From the IMG/VR virus record IMGVR_UViG_2724679140_000013: a DNA stretch of 37,432 bases; one strand, written 5' to 3'. The notes under the pieces are model-generated. The model searched no databases, was not told the DNA's origin, and worked only from the letters and a program-made list of their open reading frames with translations. Shown piece after piece: positions 1 through 36,732 of this stretch; position 1 is the first letter of the stretch, and every line of letters starts with the position of its first letter. This DNA comes from a virus. Lineage: Duplodnaviria > Heunggongvirae > Uroviricota > Caudoviricetes. The translations under genes were made by a program, and so were the position numbers.

Positions 1-1002
1 TTACCCTCTATTGTCAAAAGGGTTCAATTCAACAGCAGCCTCTAAATGACCTGGAGCAAAATGCGCATAACGCATAGTCATTTTTATATCGCTATGCCCC
101 AGTATTTTTTGCAACACAAGAATATTTCCGCCCCGCATCATAAAATGACTGGCAAACGTGTGACGTAGCACATGAGTTAATTGCCCATCAGGAAGCTCGA
201 TCTTCGCTCTCTTAATTGCAGCGTCAAAAGCCTCATAACATGGTGAAAATAGCGCTCCTCGTTTTTTAGGAAGCATAGCCTGCAATTGAGGTGAAATCGG
301 TACAGTGCGGTTCTTCTTTCCTTTAGTTTTGACAAATGTGATTCGACCGGGCAGTACTTGAGATTGTTTTAATCCTTCTGCTTCACTCCACCGAGCACCA
401 GTCGCAAGCCCAATACGAACAACAACCCCCAAATCTTTATTCCGTGACTCATCACACGCAATCAGAAGGCGTTCAATCTCATCTACATACAGAAACGCCA
501 GTTCCTTTTCTTCCTCACGAAACTTGCGAATACCAGTCAGGGGGTTTTCACCAGACCACTCTCCAAGGCGCTTCAGTTCGGCAAAAACAGCATGTAGATA
601 TGACTGCTCACGATTAACAGTTGCTTCACTAAGTTTCTTCTTCCCCTTTGGATTCCATTCACCTGATAATCGCCGCTCCCTGTAGGTGGCAAACATATTT
701 TTATCAAATTGAGAAGCAAACGGATCACCTAACCTAGAACAAATCGCCTCGAGTTTAGCCCTTCGCTCTTCACCGGAAGACAGTGTTTTACCGTACATAT
801 CAAACCAGCGAGCAACCAACTCGGAAAGGTGGGGGCCAGAATCATCCTGAAACTCGCTCCCCAAATTACTATTCATTAAACGGCGCTCATAAGAGAGCGC
901 CTCACCCTTAGTCGCAAACTGTTTACGAATACGCTTTCCCGATGCTCCATACGGGTAACACTCGCAAAGCCATTTACCAGTAGGTAGTCTTCGAACACTC
1001 AT
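1..1002 (-). CDS. int: Tyrosine recombinase / phage integrase
   Basis: 333 aa; catalytic signature ATGARWSE, HVLRHTFASHF, LGHSDIKMTMRYAH (R, HxxR, Y); first gene at the prophage left end as in P2. Confidence 0.9.
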   Translation of the reverse strand: MSVRRLPTGKWLCECYPYGASGKRIRKQFATKGEALSYERRLMNSNLGSEFQDDSGPHLSELVARWFDMYGKTLSSGEERRAKLEAICSRLGDPFASQFDKNMFATYRERRLSGEWNPKGKKKLSEATVNREQSYLHAVFAELKRLGEWSGENPLTGIRKFREEEKELAFLYVDEIERLLIACDESRNKDLGVVVRIGLATGARWSEAEGLKQSQVLPGRITFVKTKGKKNRTVPISPQLQAMLPKKRGALFSPCYEAFDAAIKRAKIELPDGQLTHVLRHTFASHFMMRGGNILVLQKILGHSDIKMTMRYAHFAPGHLEAAVELNPFDNRG

Positions 1003-1007
1003 TCTAA

Positions 1008-1394
1008 TTAAGACTTAATCCATCCCATCATCAACATCAGAGATACCGCCGTATTAGAAACAGACTGATTTTGATATACTTTTCTATTCTTTTTTTTATC
1101 TGCGAAAGGCTCAAAGGCCATATCAAGTTGTTTAGTCAATTCCTCTGCCAACAATTTGAGGTCATCCATATTTTTAACTTGTGTAGACAATTCTGGTGTA
1201 AGTCTTCCTTGATTATAAAGTACAGCTATAAAGTCAGCCGAGGTAGCCAATTTGTTTTTATAAGATGCCTTTTGCCACTCAAGGGCGTTTGCCTTATGTA
1301 ATGTTCCACCTTCATACCATTCAGAGGCATAACCATGAGATGCAAAAACAAACAAGATATAAAAAAGGACTAATTTTAAATAATTACGCTGCAT
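1008..1394 (-). CDS. Hypothetical secreted/periplasmic protein (128 aa), AT-rich moron
   Basis: N-terminal signal peptide LKLVLFYILFVFASHGYA; SD-like AAGGA 8 nt upstream of the ATG; stop lies 5 nt before the int start (coupled). Confidence 0.6.
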   Translation of the reverse strand: MQRNYLKLVLFYILFVFASHGYASEWYEGGTLHKANALEWQKASYKNKLATSADFIAVLYNQGRLTPELSTQVKNMDDLKLLAEELTKQLDMAFEPFADKKKNRKVYQNQSVSNTAVSLMLMMGWIKS

Positions 1395-1425
1395 ATCATA
1401 TTTCCTTGCATGTTATTTAACGTAT

Positions 1426-2073
1426 TTACACAAAATAAATTAAAAATGTAATCACCATACCCAAAATGAGTCCAACAATGAACACAATCAAAAATTCTTT
1501 AGTATATTCTGTTAATAGTTCACTAATGCAGTGTCTATTTTTAATATTGCCATTGCTCTGAGATATATTTTTATTAGTCTGCTGATCTAACCACGACAAT
1601 GCAGATTGCAACTGAGAACGAGTAAGATCGTTTAAACGGCCTGTACCGAAATTGATATGGCAATATCGAAGAAGTTTTTGTCTAATTTCATTACTTTCAC
1701 TGTTGCGAAGAAGGAGGCTTACAAGTAATTTACAGGCGTCATGATCCTTGTGTCGGTCAAGCATCGCATTGAGAAAGCTAATTGCGGTTGGATACTGATT
1801 CACCGTCATCTTATCGACACTATCAACACCGATTTCAGCATGAAGTTTACGCCAAACAACAAACGATTCTTCCTTGCTGGCATCAACAATCTTGTCAACC
1901 AACAACTTCAGTTGATGTCGCTGAGCCTTAACTAATGGGCGCTCATCAGGCCTACCAGAAGGGATTGCAATATTGACTGTATGCCGATCATCATATCGCT
2001 CTATCTGAATATTCTTTTCGTGGTAATCACGCCCAGCAACGCGATTGTCTGAACCGTTTGAGTTGACCGCCAT
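1426..2073 (-). CDS. Hypothetical tail-anchored membrane protein (215 aa), AT-rich moron
   Basis: Strong SD GGGAGGTG just upstream; single C-terminal TM FLIVFIVGLILGMVITFLIYFV; N-terminus carries RVAGRDYHE, which matches the repressor C-terminus. Confidence 0.65.
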   Translation of the reverse strand: MAVNSNGSDNRVAGRDYHEKNIQIERYDDRHTVNIAIPSGRPDERPLVKAQRHQLKLLVDKIVDASKEESFVVWRKLHAEIGVDSVDKMTVNQYPTAISFLNAMLDRHKDHDACKLLVSLLLRNSESNEIRQKLLRYCHINFGTGRLNDLTRSQLQSALSWLDQQTNKNISQSNGNIKNRHCISELLTEYTKEFLIVFIVGLILGMVITFLIYFV

Positions 2074-2091: not shown

Positions 2092-2505
2092 CTAACCCTT
2101 AGTTTCGTTATAGTCACGACCAGCAATACGATGGCCCTTGCCAGAAGCTCTTATTGTACCTGGAGCCAAACTACCAGCGGTCAAGGCTGCCAAAGCCGCC
2201 GCCTTAACAGCCAAAGGTGCAGAGCGATATATTTTAATTAGCTCAATCTCATCTTCAGTGGCATTAGGGATGCCATGTGCACGACTACCAGAAAGTATGT
2301 AATAGACATCTACTCCGCAGCGCCTTCCCAAGAGATTCAGCATAGCTGCATCCGGTGTAGTCACCCCTCTTTCATACTTCCCCCAAGTCTTTGTAGAAAC
2401 TTCAAAAATAGACGCCATATCATCCTGAGTCATGCCAGTTTTCTCTCGTTCCTCCCGTAATCGACGTCCAATAATGACACTTAATTCCTCTTTTTCTGTT
2501 GACAT
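2092..2505 (-). CDS. XRE-family helix-turn-helix immunity repressor (CI/C analogue)
   Basis: 137 aa; HTH region GMTQDDMASIFEVSTKTWGKYERG; divergent from the early operon, position equivalent to P2 C / 186 cI. Confidence 0.8.
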   Translation of the reverse strand: MSTEKEELSVIIGRRLREEREKTGMTQDDMASIFEVSTKTWGKYERGVTTPDAAMLNLLGRRCGVDVYYILSGSRAHGIPNATEDEIELIKIYRSAPLAVKAAALAALTAGSLAPGTIRASGKGHRIAGRDYNETKG

Positions 2506-4861: not shown

Positions 4862-5065
4862 ATGAACAAAAAGACCTGGTTTCGCGCATACATGTGGGCG
4901 CTGGTATGCGTCCTCGTTTCTCTCATTCTGTATGCAGGACTACTCCCCCGAATGATTTCATCAGACAGCTCCTTCTTGGTATTGCTGGGCATTTTCATTG
5001 CCATGCTGTACCCGGCAGGCGTTGTTCGCCTTTTCAGTAAGTACATCAAGGAAATCAAACAATGA
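4862..5065 (+). CDS. Small two-TM membrane protein coupled to the SPFH gene
   Basis: 67 aa; two hydrophobic helices (WALVCVLVSLILYAGLL, FLVLLGIFIAMLYPAGVV); ATGA overlap with the next gene. Confidence 0.6.
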   Translation: MNKKTWFRAYMWALVCVLVSLILYAGLLPRMISSDSSFLVLLGIFIAMLYPAGVVRLFSKYIKEIKQ

Positions 5066-5892
5066 AGAAACTCAAACTCTTTCAGATTATCCCGCTTTTT
5101 GCCGCCATCCTGCTGGTTGGTTGCGATCGCGTTGAGCCAGGTAATGTGGGCATCAAAGTCAACAAACTGGGCGACGACAAAGGCGTCGGTGAAGTGGTTG
5201 GCGTTGGCCGCTACTGGACAGGCTGGAATACAGAGGTTTACATCTTCCCGACCTTCAAACAAATGAAGACCTACGATGAGCCGTTCAGCTTTCAGATGAG
5301 TGACGGCACAACCATCGGCTATCACATCGGTGTGGCCTACAAGGTTGATCCATCCAAAGTTACTACAGTGTTTCAGACCTACCGCAAAGGCGTGGACGAC
5401 ATTACCGACACTGACCTGCGCCAGAAGATCGCCGATGCACTCAACCGACTGGCCAGCAAAATGACCACCGATAAATTCATCGACGGTGGCAAGTCTGAAC
5501 TGCTGGATTCAGCACTTAAAGATATTCAGGAAGAGATGACCCCCATCGGTATTCAGGTCATGAGCCTCTCTTATGTCGGTAAACCGGAATATCCGCCAAC
5601 CGTTATCGACAGCATTAACGCCAAAGTCACGGCAAACCAGAAAACCCTGCAACGCGAACAGGAAGTCAAGCAACGCGAAGCAGAAGCCAACATGTTGCGC
5701 GCAGAAGCTGCCGGACAGGCTGATGCCATTCGCACAAAAGCCCAGGCTGAAGCCGACGCCATTCGTTTACGCGGTGAAGCTCTGCGCCAGAATCCCGGCG
5801 TTATGGAGCTGGAAGCAATCAACAAATGGAACGGCACGCTGCCGCAATACATGACCAGCAATACCGCTGTTCCGTTTGTTCCGGTGAAGTAA
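5062..5892 (+). CDS. SPFH/band-7 (prohibitin/flotillin-like) lipoprotein
   Basis: 276 aa; lipobox LLVGC; SPFH core followed by an Ala/Glu/Arg-rich coiled coil (QREQEVKQREAEANMLRAEAAGQADAIRTKAQAEADAIRLRGEA). Confidence 0.85.
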   Translation: MKKLKLFQIIPLFAAILLVGCDRVEPGNVGIKVNKLGDDKGVGEVVGVGRYWTGWNTEVYIFPTFKQMKTYDEPFSFQMSDGTTIGYHIGVAYKVDPSKVTTVFQTYRKGVDDITDTDLRQKIADALNRLASKMTTDKFIDGGKSELLDSALKDIQEEMTPIGIQVMSLSYVGKPEYPPTVIDSINAKVTANQKTLQREQEVKQREAEANMLRAEAAGQADAIRTKAQAEADAIRLRGEALRQNPGVMELEAINKWNGTLPQYMTSNTAVPFVPVK

Positions 5893-5923: not shown

Positions 5924-5969
5924 AGCAGTATCAGGATTTTTTAGTATGCCGTTCTCACAAAAAAACCGC

Positions 5970-5999
5970 TTGCCATGCCGCAATCAGTCAGGTTACATT
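5970..5999 (+). promoter_or_regulatory. Candidate sigma-70 promoter reading into the a1b1/c4-like region
   Basis: TTGCCA-N18-TACATT; sequence inspection only. Confidence 0.3.
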
Positions 6000-6030
6000 T
6001 CCGCTGCACCTCATAAAACGGGTGCCGGGA

Positions 6031-6054
6031 TTGGAACCCCGCAGACTAACAGAG
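6031..6054 (+). promoter_or_regulatory. Upstream antisense-RNA target pair (a1b1-like)
   Basis: TTGGAAC (6031-6037) and CTAACAGAG (6046-6054) are exact complements of GTTCCAA (6175-6181) and CTCTGTTAG (6160-6168). Confidence 0.5.
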
Positions 6055-6059
6055 CGCAC

Positions 6060-6080
6060 AACCGCGCCAGCGGTTTTTTT
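6060..6080 (+). terminator. Intrinsic terminator directly after a1b1
   Basis: AACCGC-GCCA-GCGGTT followed by a T7 run. Confidence 0.55.
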
Positions 6081-6121
6081 GTGCGTACCGTATCGCCACG
6101 TCTTTTTCGCGTCAAAATTAT

Positions 6122-6200
6122 GGTGGGGCGTACAGGGCCAGCATCAGCTGGGCCGGGTCCTCTGTTAGCCGGTAGTTCCAACCCTGTACGTCTCACCACC
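6122..6200 (+). ncRNA. Candidate c4 / CI-type antisense immunity RNA
   Basis: 16-bp closing stem GGTGGGGCGTACAGGG / CCCTGTACGTCTCACC (two G-U pairs) enclosing hairpins CCAGC-ATCA-GCTGG and GCCGG-loop-CCGGT; the loop carries CCTCTGTTAG (b') and the adjacent single strand carries GTTCCAA (a'); ACC tail after the stem. Confidence 0.55.
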
Positions 6201-6231
6201 CCGAGCTTGGAACCTCTGGATGGTGAGTTTT
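6192..6231 (+). terminator. Terminator/attenuator hairpin overlapping the 3' arm of the c4-like stem
   Basis: CTCACCA (6192-6198) pairs with TGGTGAG (6221-6227), followed by TTTT; mutually exclusive with the 6122-6197 stem; the a2 site lies in its loop. Confidence 0.4.
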
Positions 6232-6252
6232 CAAAACTGACTAACAGAGAGG
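6207..6252 (+). promoter_or_regulatory. Downstream antisense-RNA target pair (a2b2-like) overlapping the SD of the 75-aa ORF
   Basis: TTGGAAC (6207-6213) and CTAACAGAG (6241-6249); SD GAGAGG at 6247-6252, ATG at 6260. Confidence 0.5.
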
Positions 6253-6259
6253 CCACACC

Positions 6260-6487
6260 ATGGCAAACCGCAAACAGCGCGCATACGCTGCGCGTCGTCA
6301 CATCCAGACTGAAATCGACCGCAGACTTTCCCGCGCATTCCGCGTCGCTAAAATCATGCACATCAACATGCTGCATGAGCGTAGCTGCGAACTTTCAAAC
6401 CTCTACTCATCCGCTGTTTTCAGCTATCTGGCGGATGATCTGCGCGAGCTTCAACAGCTCATCCAGCAGCAAAACAAACTCCATTAA
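6260..6487 (+). CDS. Hypothetical 75-aa protein; position analogous to P1 icd
   Basis: SD GAGAGG 7 nt upstream; basic N-terminus, helical C-terminus; first ORF after the a2b2 site. Confidence 0.6.
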   Translation: MANRKQRAYAARRHIQTEIDRRLSRAFRVAKIMHINMLHERSCELSNLYSSAVFSYLADDLRELQQLIQQQNKLH

Positions 6488-6559
6488 TTCCTGTTCCGGG
6501 CCTTTCCTGCACCTTGCGGCGGGAGGCCTTCGCACATCTGTAACAAGAGGATTGCCGCA

Positions 6560-6925
6560 ATGATTCTCGCCAACGACTTTCTTGAATACCTGCTCAACAC
6601 AGAACGTGATCTTGCCGCTCGCGTGCGTGATCGTTATGACATGTACCTGAAATCCCTGCCTGTACCGCAACTCGCTGACGGAAAAATTGTTATTGATGGT
6701 CGCTACATGATTGACAGCCACGAGGGAAATTACAGGCTTTACCGCATTGAAGGTGGCACCCCGTCCGTTATTGGCATTTACCAGCGCCCATCCTCTGCAA
6801 TCGTCGATGTGATTGCCGACAGCATCCGCATCACACATCGCCATGCCGACACAGAAGACACCGTGCTGGAAATTCAGCGGCTGGCTGCCGTCTGCCGCGA
6901 CACCCTGAATGGCATGACGAAGTAA
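6560..6925 (+). CDS. Hypothetical 121-aa protein upstream of A
   Basis: SD AGAGGA; ends 6 nt before gene A. Confidence 0.6.
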   Translation: MILANDFLEYLLNTERDLAARVRDRYDMYLKSLPVPQLADGKIVIDGRYMIDSHEGNYRLYRIEGGTPSVIGIYQRPSSAIVDVIADSIRITHRHADTEDTVLEIQRLAAVCRDTLNGMTK

Positions 6926-6931
6926 ATCACT

Positions 6932-9754
6932 ATGACGGCAGAGTACATCAGGGACTGGCAACAGCCGCGCCACGCAGTGGGACGTGAAGGAACGGGGATC
7001 CCCGTTCCTGAATCCGCGCTTTCCTCCTGGCTGGATGCCTACCGGGCAGAGAACGAGCGCCGCCAGGAAATGGCTGATGCGGCGTTCTCCGCCACGCCGC
7101 TGGGCAACCTGATTAATAAAAGCCTGGATGCACAGGAAAAACAGGACAAAACCATCACACTGGCAGGAGACGCCAGAAAACAGGTACGCGGTGCGGTGGA
7201 TGAAGCCATGGCCTCGCTGCGCCTGCTGCCGTCCTATCTGCGCGATCCGCTTATTCGCCACCTCTCCTTCCTGCGCAAAAAACAGGAAGCCGATCGCCGG
7301 AAAGGCAAAAAGAGCTGGCAGGCTGAACGCTACGCGCGCGGAACCCTGCGCAAAATATTCGAACGTCTGGACCGCACCGACCACCGCTGGCTGACACCGG
7401 GTTATCGCTCCCTTGCCGGACGCGAACGCCTGGATGATTTGCTTTACCTGCCGCAGCTCAACAAGCACCAGATACAGACGCTGGCCACCATGACGGCGGC
7501 GATGTTCAGCAGCACCTTCGAAAAACTCTGCGATGGCTTTGGCGCGACTGATGGCGAGCTGACCATGGAGGTAACGCTGAAGGCGTATCAGATGCTGGCC
7601 CGCATGGCGTTACACCTGCACGCCATGCCTCCGCATTATGACGCACTGACAACAGACAAAGACCGGAGGAACGAACCGGACACGGAGTTGCTGCCGGGCG
7701 CAATCCTTCGCCTGACCTGTGCGGAATGGTGGAAACGCAAACTGTGGCTGTTACGTTGCGAGTGGCGGGAAGAACAACTCCGCGCCGCCTGTCTGGTTTC
7801 CAGAAAAACATCGCCCTATCTGAGCCAGGACGCGTTAAGCGAGTTTCGAGCACAGCGCGAGAAAACACGCGATTTCCTGAAAAGTTTCATGCTGGAAAAC
7901 GAAGACGGGTTCACGATTGATCTCGAGACGGTGTATTACGCGGGAGTAAGTAATCCGGTTCATCGTAAGGCAGAAATGATGGCCACCATGAAGGGGCTGG
8001 AACTTCTGGCCGAAGCCCGTGGCGACAAAGCGGTGTTTCTGACTGTCACCTGCCCGTCAAAATACCACGCCACAACAGAGAACGGTCATCCGAATCCCAA
8101 ATGGAACGGGGCCACCATGCGCGACTCCAGCGATTACCTGGTTAACACGTTTTTTGCGGCGGTCCGCAAGAAACTGAACCGCGACGGCCTGCGCTGGTAT
8201 GGCATCCGCACGGTGGAGCCTCACCATGACGGCACCGTGCACTGGCATATGATGGTCTTTGCTCATCCGGAAGAAATCGACACCATTGTGTCCCACACCC
8301 GCGATATTGCCATTCAGGAAGATCGTCACGAGCTGGGTGATGATATTACCCCACGCTTTAAGGCGGAGTACGTCGACGGCTCAAAAGGCACACCGACCAG
8401 CTACATCGCCACCTACATCGGGAAAAACCTGGACAGCCGTGCCGTGGATGGCATCGACCCGAAAACGGGCAAGCCACGCGTTGACCACGAAACCGGAAAA
8501 TCAATGGCCGAGAGCGTGGAACGCGCCATCGGCTGGGCGCGCCTTCACCGGGTCCGCCAGTTCCAGTTCTTTGGTATCCCCTCCCGTCAGGTGTGGCGTG
8601 AACTGCGCCGCCTTGCCAGCCAGATGGCTCGCAACCCGGAAGGACCGCAACGGCTGAAGGATGACGCAATGGACGCGGTTCTTGCTTCCGCTGATGCCGG
8701 ATGTTTTGCCACCTACATAGAGAAACAGGGCGGCGTACTTGTTCCACGCAAGGACTACCTGATTCGCACCGCCTACGACCTCGCAGATGAGCTGAACGAT
8801 TACGGTGAACAGAGCGTACAGATTTACGGGATCTGGTCACCGCTCATCGGGGAGTCTTCCCGCGTATGCACGCATCCGGACAACTGGAAGCTGGTAAGAC
8901 GCAAACCGGAAGCGGAAGACAGCGCCCGCGAAAATGGTTTTGACCTTCAGGGCGGCCCTGCCGCCCCTTGGACTCGTGGCAATAACTGTCCCCGTATACA
9001 GGAAACGGGCAACAACGGGACAGAACAGCCGGAAGAACGGCCAGCACCGTGGCCGCAGCTTCCTGACGGCGTTGACGTGAATGAATGGATGCGCTCACTG
9101 AAACGGCACGAACACCGGGCGCTGATGCGTTCGCTGCGTGACAAACAGGCAAAAAACAGCAGTGATGAAATGCAGAACTGGACACAGAGCCGCAAACAGC
9201 CACAGCCTTTGCCTGATAACCACGAGTTACTCGCTAAAGAATGGCGGGAGTCTGCTGAATCTCTCGGCCTGCATATCGGTGAACAGCAGATGCAGCACCT
9301 GTTACGGGGCGGCAGTCTGTACGTTGACGGCAGCATCATTGCACCGCAGGGATTTGAAATTGTACGCAAACCGGATACCCGCCCGGACAGCCGAATCACG
9401 CAGCTCTGGCAGCGCCTGAGCCGTAACCACGGCGTAAGCAGCACGGAGATCCGCCATAACCCGGTCGCCAGCTATCTGGAACAGCTGGGGGCATCAGACC
9501 CCGAAGCCGCCGCACGCCTGGCATCCACACTTCAGCAAGACCAGAACACCATGAAAACACCCGTTACCGTGCTTTCTGACATGCTGCGCGCCATCCGCGA
9601 CGCAGAGCACGCACAGAGAATCAGTGAAACCACTGAACGCGCCCGCCGCAAAGCAGACCTGCTGCGGGGTGGCCTGACCAGTGGAAACAAAAAACAGACA
9701 GAAACGGGATTCACAAATCCCGTAAATGAGCAAAAAACGCGCCGCGATATATGA
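6932..9754 (+). CDS. A: Rolling-circle replication initiation endonuclease (P2 gpA family), with a long C-terminal extension
   Basis: 940 aa; HUH-type motif HHDGTVHWHMMVF and paired-tyrosine motif SYIATYIGKN as in P2 A. Confidence 0.9.
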   Translation: MTAEYIRDWQQPRHAVGREGTGIPVPESALSSWLDAYRAENERRQEMADAAFSATPLGNLINKSLDAQEKQDKTITLAGDARKQVRGAVDEAMASLRLLPSYLRDPLIRHLSFLRKKQEADRRKGKKSWQAERYARGTLRKIFERLDRTDHRWLTPGYRSLAGRERLDDLLYLPQLNKHQIQTLATMTAAMFSSTFEKLCDGFGATDGELTMEVTLKAYQMLARMALHLHAMPPHYDALTTDKDRRNEPDTELLPGAILRLTCAEWWKRKLWLLRCEWREEQLRAACLVSRKTSPYLSQDALSEFRAQREKTRDFLKSFMLENEDGFTIDLETVYYAGVSNPVHRKAEMMATMKGLELLAEARGDKAVFLTVTCPSKYHATTENGHPNPKWNGATMRDSSDYLVNTFFAAVRKKLNRDGLRWYGIRTVEPHHDGTVHWHMMVFAHPEEIDTIVSHTRDIAIQEDRHELGDDITPRFKAEYVDGSKGTPTSYIATYIGKNLDSRAVDGIDPKTGKPRVDHETGKSMAESVERAIGWARLHRVRQFQFFGIPSRQVWRELRRLASQMARNPEGPQRLKDDAMDAVLASADAGCFATYIEKQGGVLVPRKDYLIRTAYDLADELNDYGEQSVQIYGIWSPLIGESSRVCTHPDNWKLVRRKPEAEDSARENGFDLQGGPAAPWTRGNNCPRIQETGNNGTEQPEERPAPWPQLPDGVDVNEWMRSLKRHEHRALMRSLRDKQAKNSSDEMQNWTQSRKQPQPLPDNHELLAKEWRESAESLGLHIGEQQMQHLLRGGSLYVDGSIIAPQGFEIVRKPDTRPDSRITQLWQRLSRNHGVSSTEIRHNPVASYLEQLGASDPEAAARLASTLQQDQNTMKTPVTVLSDMLRAIRDAEHAQRISETTERARRKADLLRGGLTSGNKKQTETGFTNPVNEQKTRRDI

Positions 9755-9830: not shown

Positions 9831-10790
9831 ATGAAAATTTGTATCGATGACGGCTCCACCAACATCAAGCTGGCATGGACTGAGAACGGCGAACGCCGCA
9901 ACGCCATCAGCCCGAACAGCTTCAAGTCGGAATGGTCTGCGCCGTTCGGTGGAACGCAGCCCGCAAACTACATGCTTGATGGCGTGCGCTATGGTTTTGA
10001 TCCGGTCAGCGATCGCTTTGTCCAGACGACCGACACGCAATACCAGTACAGCGATGTGAATGTCATTGCCATTCATCACGCGCTGGTCAAATCAGGCATC
10101 ACACCACAGGAAGTGGATGTGGTTGTCACCCTGCCACTGAGCGAATATTTCGACACCAACGCACAGCCGGACATGGCCAACATCAACCGCAAAAAAGCAA
10201 ACGTCATGCGCCCGGTGGCGTACCAGAACGGAAAAGCATTCACTATCCGTAACGTACGGGTTATGCCTGAATCCATTCCGGCTGGTTTTAAAGCACTGGC
10301 TGACATGAGTCCGTTTGAATCCCTGCTGATTGTGGATTTAGGCGGAACCACGCTGGATGTGGCAAAGGTTCAGGGACAACTGGCAGGTATCAGCCAGGTG
10401 TTTTGCGATCCACACGTAGGCGTTTCCCTGATGGCCGATGCCGTACTGTCGGTGATGGCCACTAACGGTATGCGTACCAGTCACCACATCGCCAATACCA
10501 TTATCGAACATCGCCATGATGAAGCCTGGCTGCGCCAGCACATCCACAATGACGCGCATTACGCCAGCCTGATGGCGGTTATTCGTGAAAAGGAAGAAAC
10601 ACTGAAACAACGCGTGATCCGCGCGCTGGCGGGTTTTTCGGGTTACGGGCGGGTGATGGTTGTCGGTGGAGGGGCGGAGATTGTGGCACCCGCTATCCGC
10701 GAAGCCTGCGGAGTTAATGCGACTTTCATCGCGGACGGGGTGCCACAGTTTGCTCTGGTTAACGGGCTGTACGCAATGGACAAGGAGTAA
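9831..10790 (+). CDS. parM: Actin-like plasmid segregation ATPase ParM/StbA
   Basis: 319 aa; collinear with plasmid R1 ParM as I recall it (MKICIDDGSTNIKLAW, ISPNSFKSEW, YQYSDVNVIAIHHAL, VMPESIPAG, LIVDLGGTTLDV, VMVVGGGAE). Confidence 0.9.
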   Translation: MKICIDDGSTNIKLAWTENGERRNAISPNSFKSEWSAPFGGTQPANYMLDGVRYGFDPVSDRFVQTTDTQYQYSDVNVIAIHHALVKSGITPQEVDVVVTLPLSEYFDTNAQPDMANINRKKANVMRPVAYQNGKAFTIRNVRVMPESIPAGFKALADMSPFESLLIVDLGGTTLDVAKVQGQLAGISQVFCDPHVGVSLMADAVLSVMATNGMRTSHHIANTIIEHRHDEAWLRQHIHNDAHYASLMAVIREKEETLKQRVIRALAGFSGYGRVMVVGGGAEIVAPAIREACGVNATFIADGVPQFALVNGLYAMDKE

Positions 10791-10794
10791 ACCA

Positions 10795-11109
10795 ATGACG
10801 ACACCAACCAGACGGATAAGTTTCTATCTGAAGCCAGCTGCAGTCAAGAGTGAACGGGAAGCGTGTAATTATCTCGACAGCCTGCCAGCCTCCGAACGCA
10901 GCCGCGCGCAACGCGCGGCATTTCTGGCTGGACTGGCACTCATTAAAAACGATCCTGCCTTTGCTTACTGGCTGGCTGAATGGTCAGAGGGGGAAAATAT
11001 GCCTGCCAACAATCACATATGGGGCTGGCATAACAGCGAGCCTGTTGGTTGCAAAAATCAGAATATAAGTCAAATAAAAAAGAATATTCAGGAATTTTTT
11101 CCTGAATGA
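10795..11109 (+). CDS. parR: ParR-like centromere-binding adaptor (RHH)
   Basis: 104 aa; SD AGGAG; RRISFYLKP...LDSLPASERSRAQRAAFLAGLALIKNDP parallels the R1 ParR N-terminal domain; directly downstream of parM. Confidence 0.75.
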   Translation: MTTPTRRISFYLKPAAVKSEREACNYLDSLPASERSRAQRAAFLAGLALIKNDPAFAYWLAEWSEGENMPANNHIWGWHNSEPVGCKNQNISQIKKNIQEFFPE

Positions 11110-11467: not shown

Positions 11468-11785
11468 TTATGCAACCTGACAGGAATGTTCTGCCGTCGC
11501 AGTAACAACCCCACCGGAATACCCAAACTTAAAATCCCACCCCAGGATGTTTAGCATGATAAACAGTCGATCAATGGTATGATTATCTAACTTACCATTA
11601 ATGATTTCGCTTACTCTTGGTTGGGTTGTTTCCAGCAATTCAGCAGCTTCTCGCTGGGTAAGACCGCGCTCCTGAATCATTTTTCGGATAATAACCATTA
11701 ATTGGGCCCGGATGTGTTTATCACTAGCTTCATTTACAGAGCTACTTGATGACGCATAAGGGTTTTTGACTACGACGAATTCCAT
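11468..11785 (-). CDS. XRE-family HTH antitoxin (HigA-like)
   Basis: 105 aa; GLTQREAAELLETTQPRVSEIINGKLDNHTIDRLFIMLNILG is the typical HigA/XRE antitoxin pattern; downstream of the toxin. Confidence 0.8.
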   Translation of the reverse strand: MEFVVVKNPYASSSSSVNEASDKHIRAQLMVIIRKMIQERGLTQREAAELLETTQPRVSEIINGKLDNHTIDRLFIMLNILGWDFKFGYSGGVVTATAEHSCQVA

Positions 11786-11855
11786 AACTCTCCAGCCTTA
11801 ATCAGCGATGTTGCTGACATTGATTATGTTATATCAGATTTGAGATACCTGCAAG

Positions 11856-12257
11856 CTATCTTAAGCCATTTTTACGACGATACTCCACTAATTGTTTGTA
11901 TCTTGCGGCAGCTGTCTCATATTCTTTTTTTGACACACCATTTGTCTTTTTCTTAAATGTATGAAGTATGTAAACAGACTCCGCAAATTTCGCAACGTAA
12001 ATCATACGATAAGAATCACTACTCTTGATGGTTAATTGCATTGCGTAGCGACCAATCGTTTCCCGCATTGATTTTTTTTGAGCAGGTGGAACCCCCAAGG
12101 CATCATCACCATCCACTGGAAAATCGAAACTGTCGAAAGAATGAGGACAATCGCTCTGCAGTGCAACAAGCTCAAAATTTATCCTTTCTCGAACAGCTTC
12201 AGGATAACTATCAATTTGTTTCTGAATTTTATCATTCCAATATGTGATGTCTTTCAC
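11856..12257 (-). CDS. Gp49/RelE-HigB-superfamily toxin
   Basis: 133 aa, GTG start with SD GAGAGG; YRMIYVAKFAESVYILHTFKKKTNGVSKKEYETAAARYKQL matches the Gp49-like RelE/ParE toxin C-terminal pattern; toxin-first order as in higBA. Confidence 0.7.
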   Translation of the reverse strand: MKDITYWNDKIQKQIDSYPEAVRERINFELVALQSDCPHSFDSFDFPVDGDDALGVPPAQKKSMRETIGRYAMQLTIKSSDSYRMIYVAKFAESVYILHTFKKKTNGVSKKEYETAAARYKQLVEYRRKNGLR

Positions 12258-36429: not shown

Positions 36430-36516
36430 TGGTACCCGGAGCGGGACTTGAACCCGCACAGCGCGAACGCCGAGGGATTTTAAATCCCTTGTGTCTACCG
36501 ATTCCACCATCCGGGC
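36430..36516 (-). tRNA. leuZ: tRNA-Leu (anticodon UAA)
   Basis: 87-nt reverse complement GCCCGGATGGTGGAATCGGTAGACACAAGGGATTTAAAATCCC...GGGTACCA; cloverleaf with long variable arm and encoded CCA. Confidence 0.95.
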
Positions 36517-36528
36517 TCGGGAAGAAAG

Positions 36529-36602
36529 TGGAGGCGCGTTCCGGAGTCGAACCGGACTAGACGGATTTGCAATCCGCTACATAACCGCTTTGTTAACGCG
36601 CC
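36529..36602 (-). tRNA. cysT: tRNA-Cys (anticodon GCA)
   Basis: 74-nt reverse complement GGCGCGTTAACAAAGCGGTTATGTAGCGGATTGCAAATCCGTC...CGCGCCTCCA. Confidence 0.95.
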
Positions 36603-36656
36603 AAATTCTTCAGGCCTTTCAGCCAGACATCCGCTTGACGCCGATGTCTTTTAAAC

Positions 36657-36732
<76 letters not shown>

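Follow-up and report, generated by a model that had tools for sequence, protein, structure and literature searches.

We analyzed a stretch of 37,432 nucleotides (nt) of viral DNA, hereafter the window (IMG/VR record IMGVR_UViG_2724679140_000013; Caudoviricetes), and focused on positions 6260-6925, where two small open reading frames (ORFs) of 75 and 121 amino acids (aa), ORF75 and ORF121, precede the replication gene A. This region shares 91-96% identity with Escherichia phage P88 and with further phages and prophages of Xuanwuvirus (Peduoviridae, P2-like), and the window is a P88-like (Xuanwuvirus, P2-like) prophage of E. coli. A plus-strand early operon follows the repressor gene, and its last gene, encoding an SPFH lipoprotein (5062..5892), is followed by the ORF75/ORF121 region. 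On balance, we consider it probable that this region carries a P4-type RNA immunity cassette, composed of a promoter, an isrK-like leader, a C4/CI RNA and an epsilon-like gene, ahead of P2-like replication genes. The features are as follows, all on the plus strand:

5970..5999, plus strand: putative sigma-70-like promoter (TTGCCA-18-TACATT) from a consensus scan, ending 7 nt before the isrK-like RNA
6006..6080, plus strand: isrK-like leader RNA, the equivalent of P4 'seqA' (Rfam RF01394, 72.4 bits, cutoff 50)
6030-6038 (a1) and 6047-6054 (b1), plus strand: target copies inside the isrK-like leader, located by complementarity
6060-6075 plus T run, plus strand: intrinsic terminator closing the leader
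6116..6203, plus strand: C4/CI-type antisense RNA (Rfam RF01695, 78.5 bits, cutoff 45, full length)
6206-6214 (a2) and 6242-6249 (b2), plus strand: second target copies, b2 being complementary to loop b' at 8 of 8 positions
6247-6252, plus strand: Shine-Dalgarno sequence of ORF75 (GAGAGG), overlapping b2
6260..6487, plus strand: ORF75, ATG start, 75 aa, short-form homologue of P4 epsilon/E ('derepression protein')
6498..6529, plus strand: conserved GC-rich hairpin lacking a T tract, within the 72-nt spacer that separates ORF75 from ORF121
6560..6925, plus strand: ORF121, ATG start, 121 aa, P2 Orf83-like by profile comparison
6932..9754, plus strand: gene A, rolling-circle replication initiator of 940 aa, distal to the putative RNA gate (Pfam Phage_GPA, E 1e-131; phrog_91, 'nicking at origin of replication')

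These coordinates bear out the initial annotation with regard to both ORFs and to the start of gene A 6 nt after ORF121. No other ORF start lies in the 56 nt between the end of the Rfam C4 match (6203) and the ATG of ORF75 (6260). Chance ORFs of the size of ORF75 and ORF121 are common in the window, where dozens of spurious ones were listed. Both frames were uninterrupted in the 13 script-extracted loci, which come from E. coli, E. albertii, Salmonella, Serratia and a contig bearing the label Vagococcus (three of the loci have one common leader), and ORF75 was intact in 12 further viral-contig loci retrieved via the window's own C4 loop. A scan of genome contigs yielded three loci only. Because both proteins match PHROG families (ORF75, phrog_3688, E 1e-41; ORF121, phrog_3237, E 4e-55), the frames are kept across loci, and the median pairwise ratios of nonsynonymous to synonymous substitution rates (dN/dS; 0.32 for ORF75 and 0.39 for ORF121) are well below 1, ORF75 and ORF121 are real genes.

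Sequence comparisons indicated that ORF75 is almost certainly a homologue of the P4 antirepressor epsilon (E). It scored 28.4 bits (E 1.4e-6) against the Pfam model 'Derepression' (PF25738), above the curated cutoff of 27, and most of its close relatives carry a precomputed assignment to this family; P4 epsilon reaches 170 bits on the same model. Pairwise BLASTP aligned ORF75 with P4 epsilon at 33% identity over 51 aa (E 6e-9), and hhalign gave a probability of 96.2% (E 2e-9; 64 columns, from residue 1) when a profile of 22 ORF75 family sequences was compared with P4 epsilon, and 93.4% when the two families were compared with each other. Features common to the two proteins include a basic N-terminus (MANRK in ORF75, MRNKK in epsilon), an RA pair and an FSYL..D motif, and both the N-terminal and the FSYL motifs are invariant in the ORF75 family. 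The AlphaFold (AF2) model of ORF75 is a confidently predicted two-helix hairpin with a predicted local distance difference test score (pLDDT) of 86. The initial annotation had recognized no family motif in either protein; both in fact belong to described families, and ORF75-type proteins are already labelled 'derepression protein' among RefSeq relatives and in the P88 record. Searches of PDB sequences with ORF75 and ORF121 returned nothing below E 0.4, and NCBIfam contained no model for either protein.

Further comparison revealed two epsilon sub-families, which fall into separate PHROGs. The long form (93-99 aa, phrog_10016) ends in a VLEELKxKGLCRDF tail and was found in P4-like satellites, in the order AlpA, 'Phage_ASH' ORF, epsilon, orf149, small ORFs, DUF5375 and alpha primase. 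The short form (72-80 aa, phrog_3688) has no tail and precedes an Orf83-like gene and gpA wherever the downstream sequence could be checked. ORF75 does not have the full-length architecture of epsilon, and its relatives stop soon after FSYLADDL. P4 E binds and inactivates the P2 C repressor, and this binding is weakened by mutations of C at T67 and I70 (PMC2995052). By analogy, it seems reasonably likely that ORF75 also has antirepressor activity.

With regard to the RNA elements, the pair of isrK and C4 was present with the same spacing in all 12 other scanned loci with an ORF75-type gene. According to Rfam, isrK followed by C4 also lies upstream of epsilon in P4, and P2 has neither. The -35 and -10 blocks of the putative promoter are conserved across related loci and its spacer is variable; at the equivalent position (the PLE promoter), P4 has TTGCCT...TATAGT. 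In the C4 RNA of the window, the sequences of loop b' and of the single-stranded a' are CUCUGUUA and AGUUCCAAC, respectively. Eight different b' 8-mers were found among the ten loci tabulated for b' and b2, and locus L016, which was added in the later comparison of alleles and repressors, had a ninth. The a' sequence also varies among loci, and the copies in the leader (a1/b1) and after C4 (a2/b2) change along, b1 and b2 being complementary to the b' of each locus at 7-8 of 8 positions. In addition, the distance from the end of b2 to the ATG of ORF75 is 10 nt in all ten tabulated loci, which is identical to the spacing in the P1 record (b2 at 48452-48459, icd ATG at 48470). In P4, TTCACAGG (b2) plus AGG lies before a 65-aa ORF, the stop codon of which overlaps the epsilon start codon. 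Because of this three-way co-variation, which is strong comparative evidence, the C4-type RNA appears to pair with both pairs of sites, and ORF75 would be its direct translational target; we consider it highly probable that translation of ORF75 is gated by C4. The initial annotation had proposed both ORFs as the regulated output. Its proposal holds for ORF75, which is first and direct (a co-varying b2 over the Shine-Dalgarno sequence, at the P1-like 10 nt), but not for ORF121, which is not of cassette origin (Orf83/DUF5405; the phage Chuche arrangement described below).

At least nine b' specificities and five a' variants were present in L001-L016 and the window; b', a', the ORF75 allele and the repressor all reassort independently of one another. 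Such diversity of C4 loops is the pattern that diversifying, immunity-type selection would produce.

The position of ORF75 also raises the alternative that it is mainly a translated 'gate' ORF, comparable to P1 icd or to the first P4 ORF after seqC, which licenses expression of ORF121 and A and thereby serves replication immunity with little or no antirepression. The geometry here equals that of P1 b2/icd, the right side of the cassette is always an Orf83-like gene plus A while the left neighbours vary, and P4 shuts off its replication operon by an equivalent RNA (PMC4825925, PMC3632133). However, the ORF75 protein is under purifying selection and its motifs are kept through to P4 epsilon, whereas a pure spacer ORF would lose them. 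We regard this alternative as unlikely, and a gate-ORF role and an antirepressor role are not mutually exclusive.

A point of annotation also concerns this RNA region. A 205-aa frame (5946-6563, plus strand) runs over isrK, C4 and part of ORF75 and passes the Pfam model Phage_ASH (PF10554) with 27.5 bits, and in P4 (L002) an obsolete 'cI protein' ORF across the CI RNA (8168-8584, minus strand) passes it with 59.7 bits. The 'ash family protein' is annotated at the isrK/C4 region in some RefSeq records, and a survey of P4 satellites took PF10554 as its 'epsilon' marker (PMC8628076). The true epsilon (PF25738) is the gene after the PF10554 frame. The Phage_ASH model thus seems to represent the conserved isrK/C4 RNA region in translated form, and its matches here mark this RNA, not the true epsilon gene.

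ORF121 is a homologue of P2 Orf83 (DUF5405), as judged from profile comparisons. ORF121 alone matched DUF5405 weakly (13.7 bits, cutoff 21.6, E 0.086), direct BLASTP against P2 Orf83 found nothing and a shallow profile gave just 7.6%; the link emerged with a deeper alignment, in which a profile of 15 ORF121 sequences (A6) matched P2 Orf83 plus P0172 with 98.1% in hhalign (E 8e-14, residues 41-120). An exhaustive profile search yielded a small family of 32 representatives, and the relatives P0162, P0164 and P0172 reach the DUF5405 cutoff. The protein consists of a helical N-terminal extension of ~40 aa, which P2 Orf83 does not have, and a DUF5405 domain at residues ~41-120, which is homologous to it. 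The C-terminal two-thirds of the ORF121 model have a pLDDT of 70-86. The fold comparison proposed in the initial annotation was informative for ORF121, whose best match in BFVD is a DUF5405 protein, but not for ORF75, for which Foldseek against BFVD returned generic helical hairpins only, all with E >0.4.

The genomic position of ORF121 is also that of Orf83. Both genes lie directly upstream of gene A, P2 Orf83 overlapping the A start; ORF121-type genes either overlap A by 4 nt or end 3 or 6 nt before it (12 loci with intact A; A is disrupted in L003). Both an Orf83-like gene and an intact gene A (88% identical) are present in the isolated phage Chuche, in which we found no isrK, no C4 and no epsilon-like gene. 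In addition, ORF121 of the window and that of L012 differ by two substitutions (dS 0.06), whereas the two ORF75 proteins are only ~66% identical. Therefore, ORF121 belongs to the replication block, and the RNA/epsilon cassette is an optional upstream insertion. The possibility that ORF121 is an antirepressor or a cell-division inhibitor, by analogy with Ant or Icd, derives only from its being the second ORF downstream of the RNA element. We consider it very improbable, given that ORF121 is homologous to P2 Orf83/DUF5405 and P2 has no C4 module, that it is kept with gene A in the cassette-less Chuche, and that it has no similarity to Ant1, P4 orf151 or P4 orf106.

Direct comparison with the P1 proteins revealed that the icd/ant likeness put forward in the initial annotation is positional only. 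As a candidate Icd relative, ORF75 gave no alignment to P1 Icd (hhalign probability 0.04%), and ORF121 as a candidate Ant relative gave 0.3% against Ant1; nothing was found between the P4 65-aa ORF and P1 Icd either. The length of about 73 aa given for P1 Icd in the initial annotation agrees with the P1 record. Of the two ORFs that had been considered as possible antirepressors, ORF75 remains a candidate through its homology with P4 epsilon/E, but ORF121 does not.

Phage 520873 (L017, Xuanwuvirus) was considered as evidence that the cassette is dispensable and was set aside as uninformative because its gene A is fragmented; Chuche was used instead. A deletion at 2470-2615 of L017 begins at the start of an ead-like gene and leaves only the final ~13 codons of the epsilon-like gene; the lipoprotein gene, isrK and C4 are lost, and gene A is split into three ORFs. 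This element is probably a defective prophage.

As for the spacer between ORF75 and ORF121, its length of 72 nt is fixed, and its right half is kept in Chuche, which is without the cassette. The minimum free energy fold of its hairpin is similar across variants, and both stem arms are changed in L003 and L008 (eight distinct variants). Possible roles of the hairpin include RNA processing and stabilisation, and it might also mark an insertion junction.

We compared this arrangement with known systems. The immunity/left operon of P4 has the order PLE, seqA leader, CI RNA, seqC, 65-aa ORF, epsilon, orf151, cnr and alpha, and it resembles the window in the order of isrK and C4, the position of b2 beside the Shine-Dalgarno sequence, the homologous antirepressor and the replication initiator gene after the cassette. 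The two differ in several respects. First, the epsilon-like gene comes directly after b2 in the window, whereas in P4 epsilon is preceded by, and coupled to, the 65-aa ORF. Second, the window family is the tail-less form of 72-80 aa, in contrast with the satellite form of 93-99 aa with its C-terminal tail. Third, the genes downstream are an Orf83-like gene and the rolling-circle initiator A, in place of orf151, cnr and the alpha primase. Finally, the window represents a complete P2-like phage that encodes a protein repressor of its own.

The immI region of P1 and P7 (c4, icd, ant1/ant2) has a C4-family RNA, a1/b1 and a2/b2 targets and the 10-nt spacing between b2 and ATG at the first ORF in common with the window, as well as an antirepressor (or its homologue) as the regulated output beside a separate protein repressor. 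However, neither ORF75 and Icd nor ORF121 and Ant1 are similar, and the antirepressor is the first ORF here and the second in P1. In the Salmonella prophage Gifsy-1 (isrK, orf45, anrP), an isrK-family leader with a partly read-through terminator is likewise followed by an antirepressor gene, and a processed RNA, STnc1160, is found downstream of IsrK (PMC4825925). The short IsrK of Gifsy-1 activates translation in trans, and AnrP is from a different family. Thus, the window cassette is closest to the P4 immunity/left operon in its parts and to P1 immI in its logic. It is set apart from both by the position of the epsilon-like gene at the gate, by the tail-less short form of this gene and by an operon that runs on into the Orf83-like gene and the rolling-circle initiator A. 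The component families are all catalogued (isrK and C4 in Rfam, Derepression and DUF5405 in Pfam), and we found no paper describing the arrangement isrK-C4-epsilon-Orf83-A in P2-like phages.

By analogy with P1 and P4, the cassette might work as follows. In a lysogen, the constitutive promoter would produce the leader, and most transcripts would end at the isrK terminator. Transcripts that read through would be processed into C4 RNA, which would pair with a2 and b2 and block translation of ORF75. The untranslated mRNA would be prone to premature Rho-type termination, so that ORF121 and A would also be expressed at a low level. When C4 is limiting, as might occur in a fresh infection or on arrival of a phage of different C4 specificity, ORF75 would be translated and transcription would reach ORF121 and A. 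ORF75 would then most likely act as an antirepressor of P2 C-family (XRE-fold) repressors. With regard to P4, CI RNA with seqA and seqC brings about premature termination of the replication operon (PMC4825925, PMC3632133). High expression of IsrK and of the downstream STnc1160, likened to P4 CI in the IsrK study, is seen in Gifsy-1 lysogens (PMC7067206).

To examine the possible target of ORF75, we analyzed the repressor gene of the window:

2092..2505, minus strand: immunity repressor of 137 aa with helix-turn-helix (HTH) domains only (Pfam HTH matches), DicA/XRE-like and not P2 C-type, candidate target of ORF75

In agreement with the initial annotation, this protein matched HTH_3, HTH_19 and HTH_31 alone in Pfam and has no peptidase domain. 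It has a weak NCBIfam match to DicA, and is 45% identical to the 128-aa repressor of L006 and 20-26% identical to P2 C-type repressors. These results are relevant to the alternative that ORF75 is the prophage's own induction switch, that is, that it binds the resident 137-aa repressor and that loss of C4 induces the prophage. The absence of an autocleavage domain from this repressor and the homology of ORF75 to an antirepressor, under C4 control, are in favor of such a switch. A LexA-box search of the window returned only chance-level matches inside genes, none in a regulatory position, and we found no SOS-type control; among the genes examined, which did not amount to an exhaustive scan of the window for such proteins, no other antirepressor-family protein was present. 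The available part of the P88 paper reports phage recovered after mitomycin C and mentions no uninduced control, and SOS inducibility is not concluded from it.

Several observations, on the other hand, argue against a dedicated switch. The known target of the family, P2 C, is a repressor of 99 aa in which T67 and I70 matter (PMC2995052), whereas the window repressor is DicA-like and has the low identity given above. ORF75 also lies in the early operon, distant from the switch. Moreover, in the loci where the ORF75 allele, the C4 specificity and the neighbouring repressor were all readable, each ORF75 allele adjoined two or more dissimilar repressors, and P2 C-type as well as DicA-like ones stood beside three of the four alleles, so that identical or near-identical alleles adjoin unrelated repressors. 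For example, one identical 72-aa ORF75 protein stands beside P2 C-type repressors of 102 and 103 aa and beside a DicA-like one of 128 aa, and the window allele is found beside a 113-aa C-type repressor as well as the 137-aa type. Among the 12 viral contigs with the C4 loop of the window, three different ORF75 central regions occurred, and gpA was present in all cases. Antirepressors of broad specificity are known, such as P22 Ant and the P1 Ant, which acts on both P1 and P7 C1 repressors. Because such proteins exist, the missing co-variation is not decisive against an own-prophage switch. Taken together, action of ORF75 on its own 137-aa repressor appears possible but rather doubtful. If a neighbouring repressor is targeted, the target of ORF75 must be a feature common to XRE-fold repressors and not their specificity determinants; otherwise, it must lie in other elements.

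Some of these and other observations also weigh against the preferred reading, a P4-type immunity cassette whose epsilon-like product acts on P2 C-family repressors. The repressor of the window is not of the P2 C type. ORF75 alleles, C4 specificities and repressor types reassort independently, and co-variation of ORF75 alleles with the neighbouring repressor was looked for and not found; therefore, there is no co-evolution signal toward the neighbouring repressor. ORF75 clears the PF25738 cutoff by just 1.4 bits and does not have the C-terminal tail of epsilon, which may matter for function. Repressor binding is extrapolated from a relative of ~33% identity, and the proposals of a promoter, of read-through at the terminator and of Rho polarity come from consensus or analogy. 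Finally, as Chuche indicates, expression of gene A is possible in a phage that has no cassette, and the gate would therefore be an added control rather than a requirement.

The independent reassortment of many C4 specificities with respect to ORF75 alleles and repressors might instead suggest that the cassette serves chiefly in conflict between elements, C4 silencing matching P4-like satellites or P2-like phages and ORF75 derepressing other P2-family prophages. Long-form epsilon does exactly this for P4 (PMC2995052, PMC8628076), and an anti-satellite role of prophage IsrK-C4 systems was raised by Barquist et al. (PMC3632133). However, all 12 viral contigs with the b' loop of the window were P88-like with gpA and no satellite was among them; we consider this explanation quite unlikely. 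A more specific version, which we put forward as speculation with a low chance of being right, is that helper-type P2-like prophages own a satellite-style epsilon and a fast-diversifying C4 'barcode' that act mainly in trans, ORF75 derepressing P2-family prophages whatever their operator specificity and C4 providing a second, RNA-based immunity layer that would cover gene A and perhaps also P4-like satellites whose loop matches. If true, the cassette would be a weapon in prophage-prophage and helper-satellite conflict and not a simple induction switch.

P2 itself is regarded as non-inducible, and antirepression in the P2 group is documented for Tum of phage 186 and for epsilon of the satellite P4. 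Here, an entire lineage of P2-like prophages carries an epsilon homologue behind an RNA immunity of the P4/P1 type, in front of the replication initiator. Approximately 870 of 5,426 complete E. coli genomes match the region over most of its length, and E. coli M8 (NZ_CP019953) matches it at 100%. The preferred reading suggests how these common prophages might be induced and might maintain a second immunity based on RNA, both of which can be tested, and it indicates exchange of regulatory parts between helpers and their satellites.

The left end of the gene order contains two further features:

1..1002, minus strand: integrase
1008-2073, minus strand: two cargo ORFs, flanked by the integrase and repressor genes

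The cargo ORFs encode proteins of 128 aa with a hydrophobic N-terminus and 215 aa with a hydrophobic C-terminus, and P88 has neither. In this integrase-bearing prophage, a ParM gene and a ParR-like partition gene (Plasmid_stab_B type) are located after gene A (9831-11109), and 47 of the 1,576 E. coli matches to region 6000-6930 were plasmid-borne; like P4, some members of the family may therefore be able to exist as plasmids. Two minus-strand ORFs at 11468-12257 lie between the partition and portal genes, one of 133 aa and, after it, one of 105 aa whose sequence resembles that of an HTH protein; they might constitute a toxin-antitoxin-like pair. A cluster of three tRNA genes (36433-36732, minus strand) is located at the far end of the window and probably represents host sequence past the prophage end or the attachment region.

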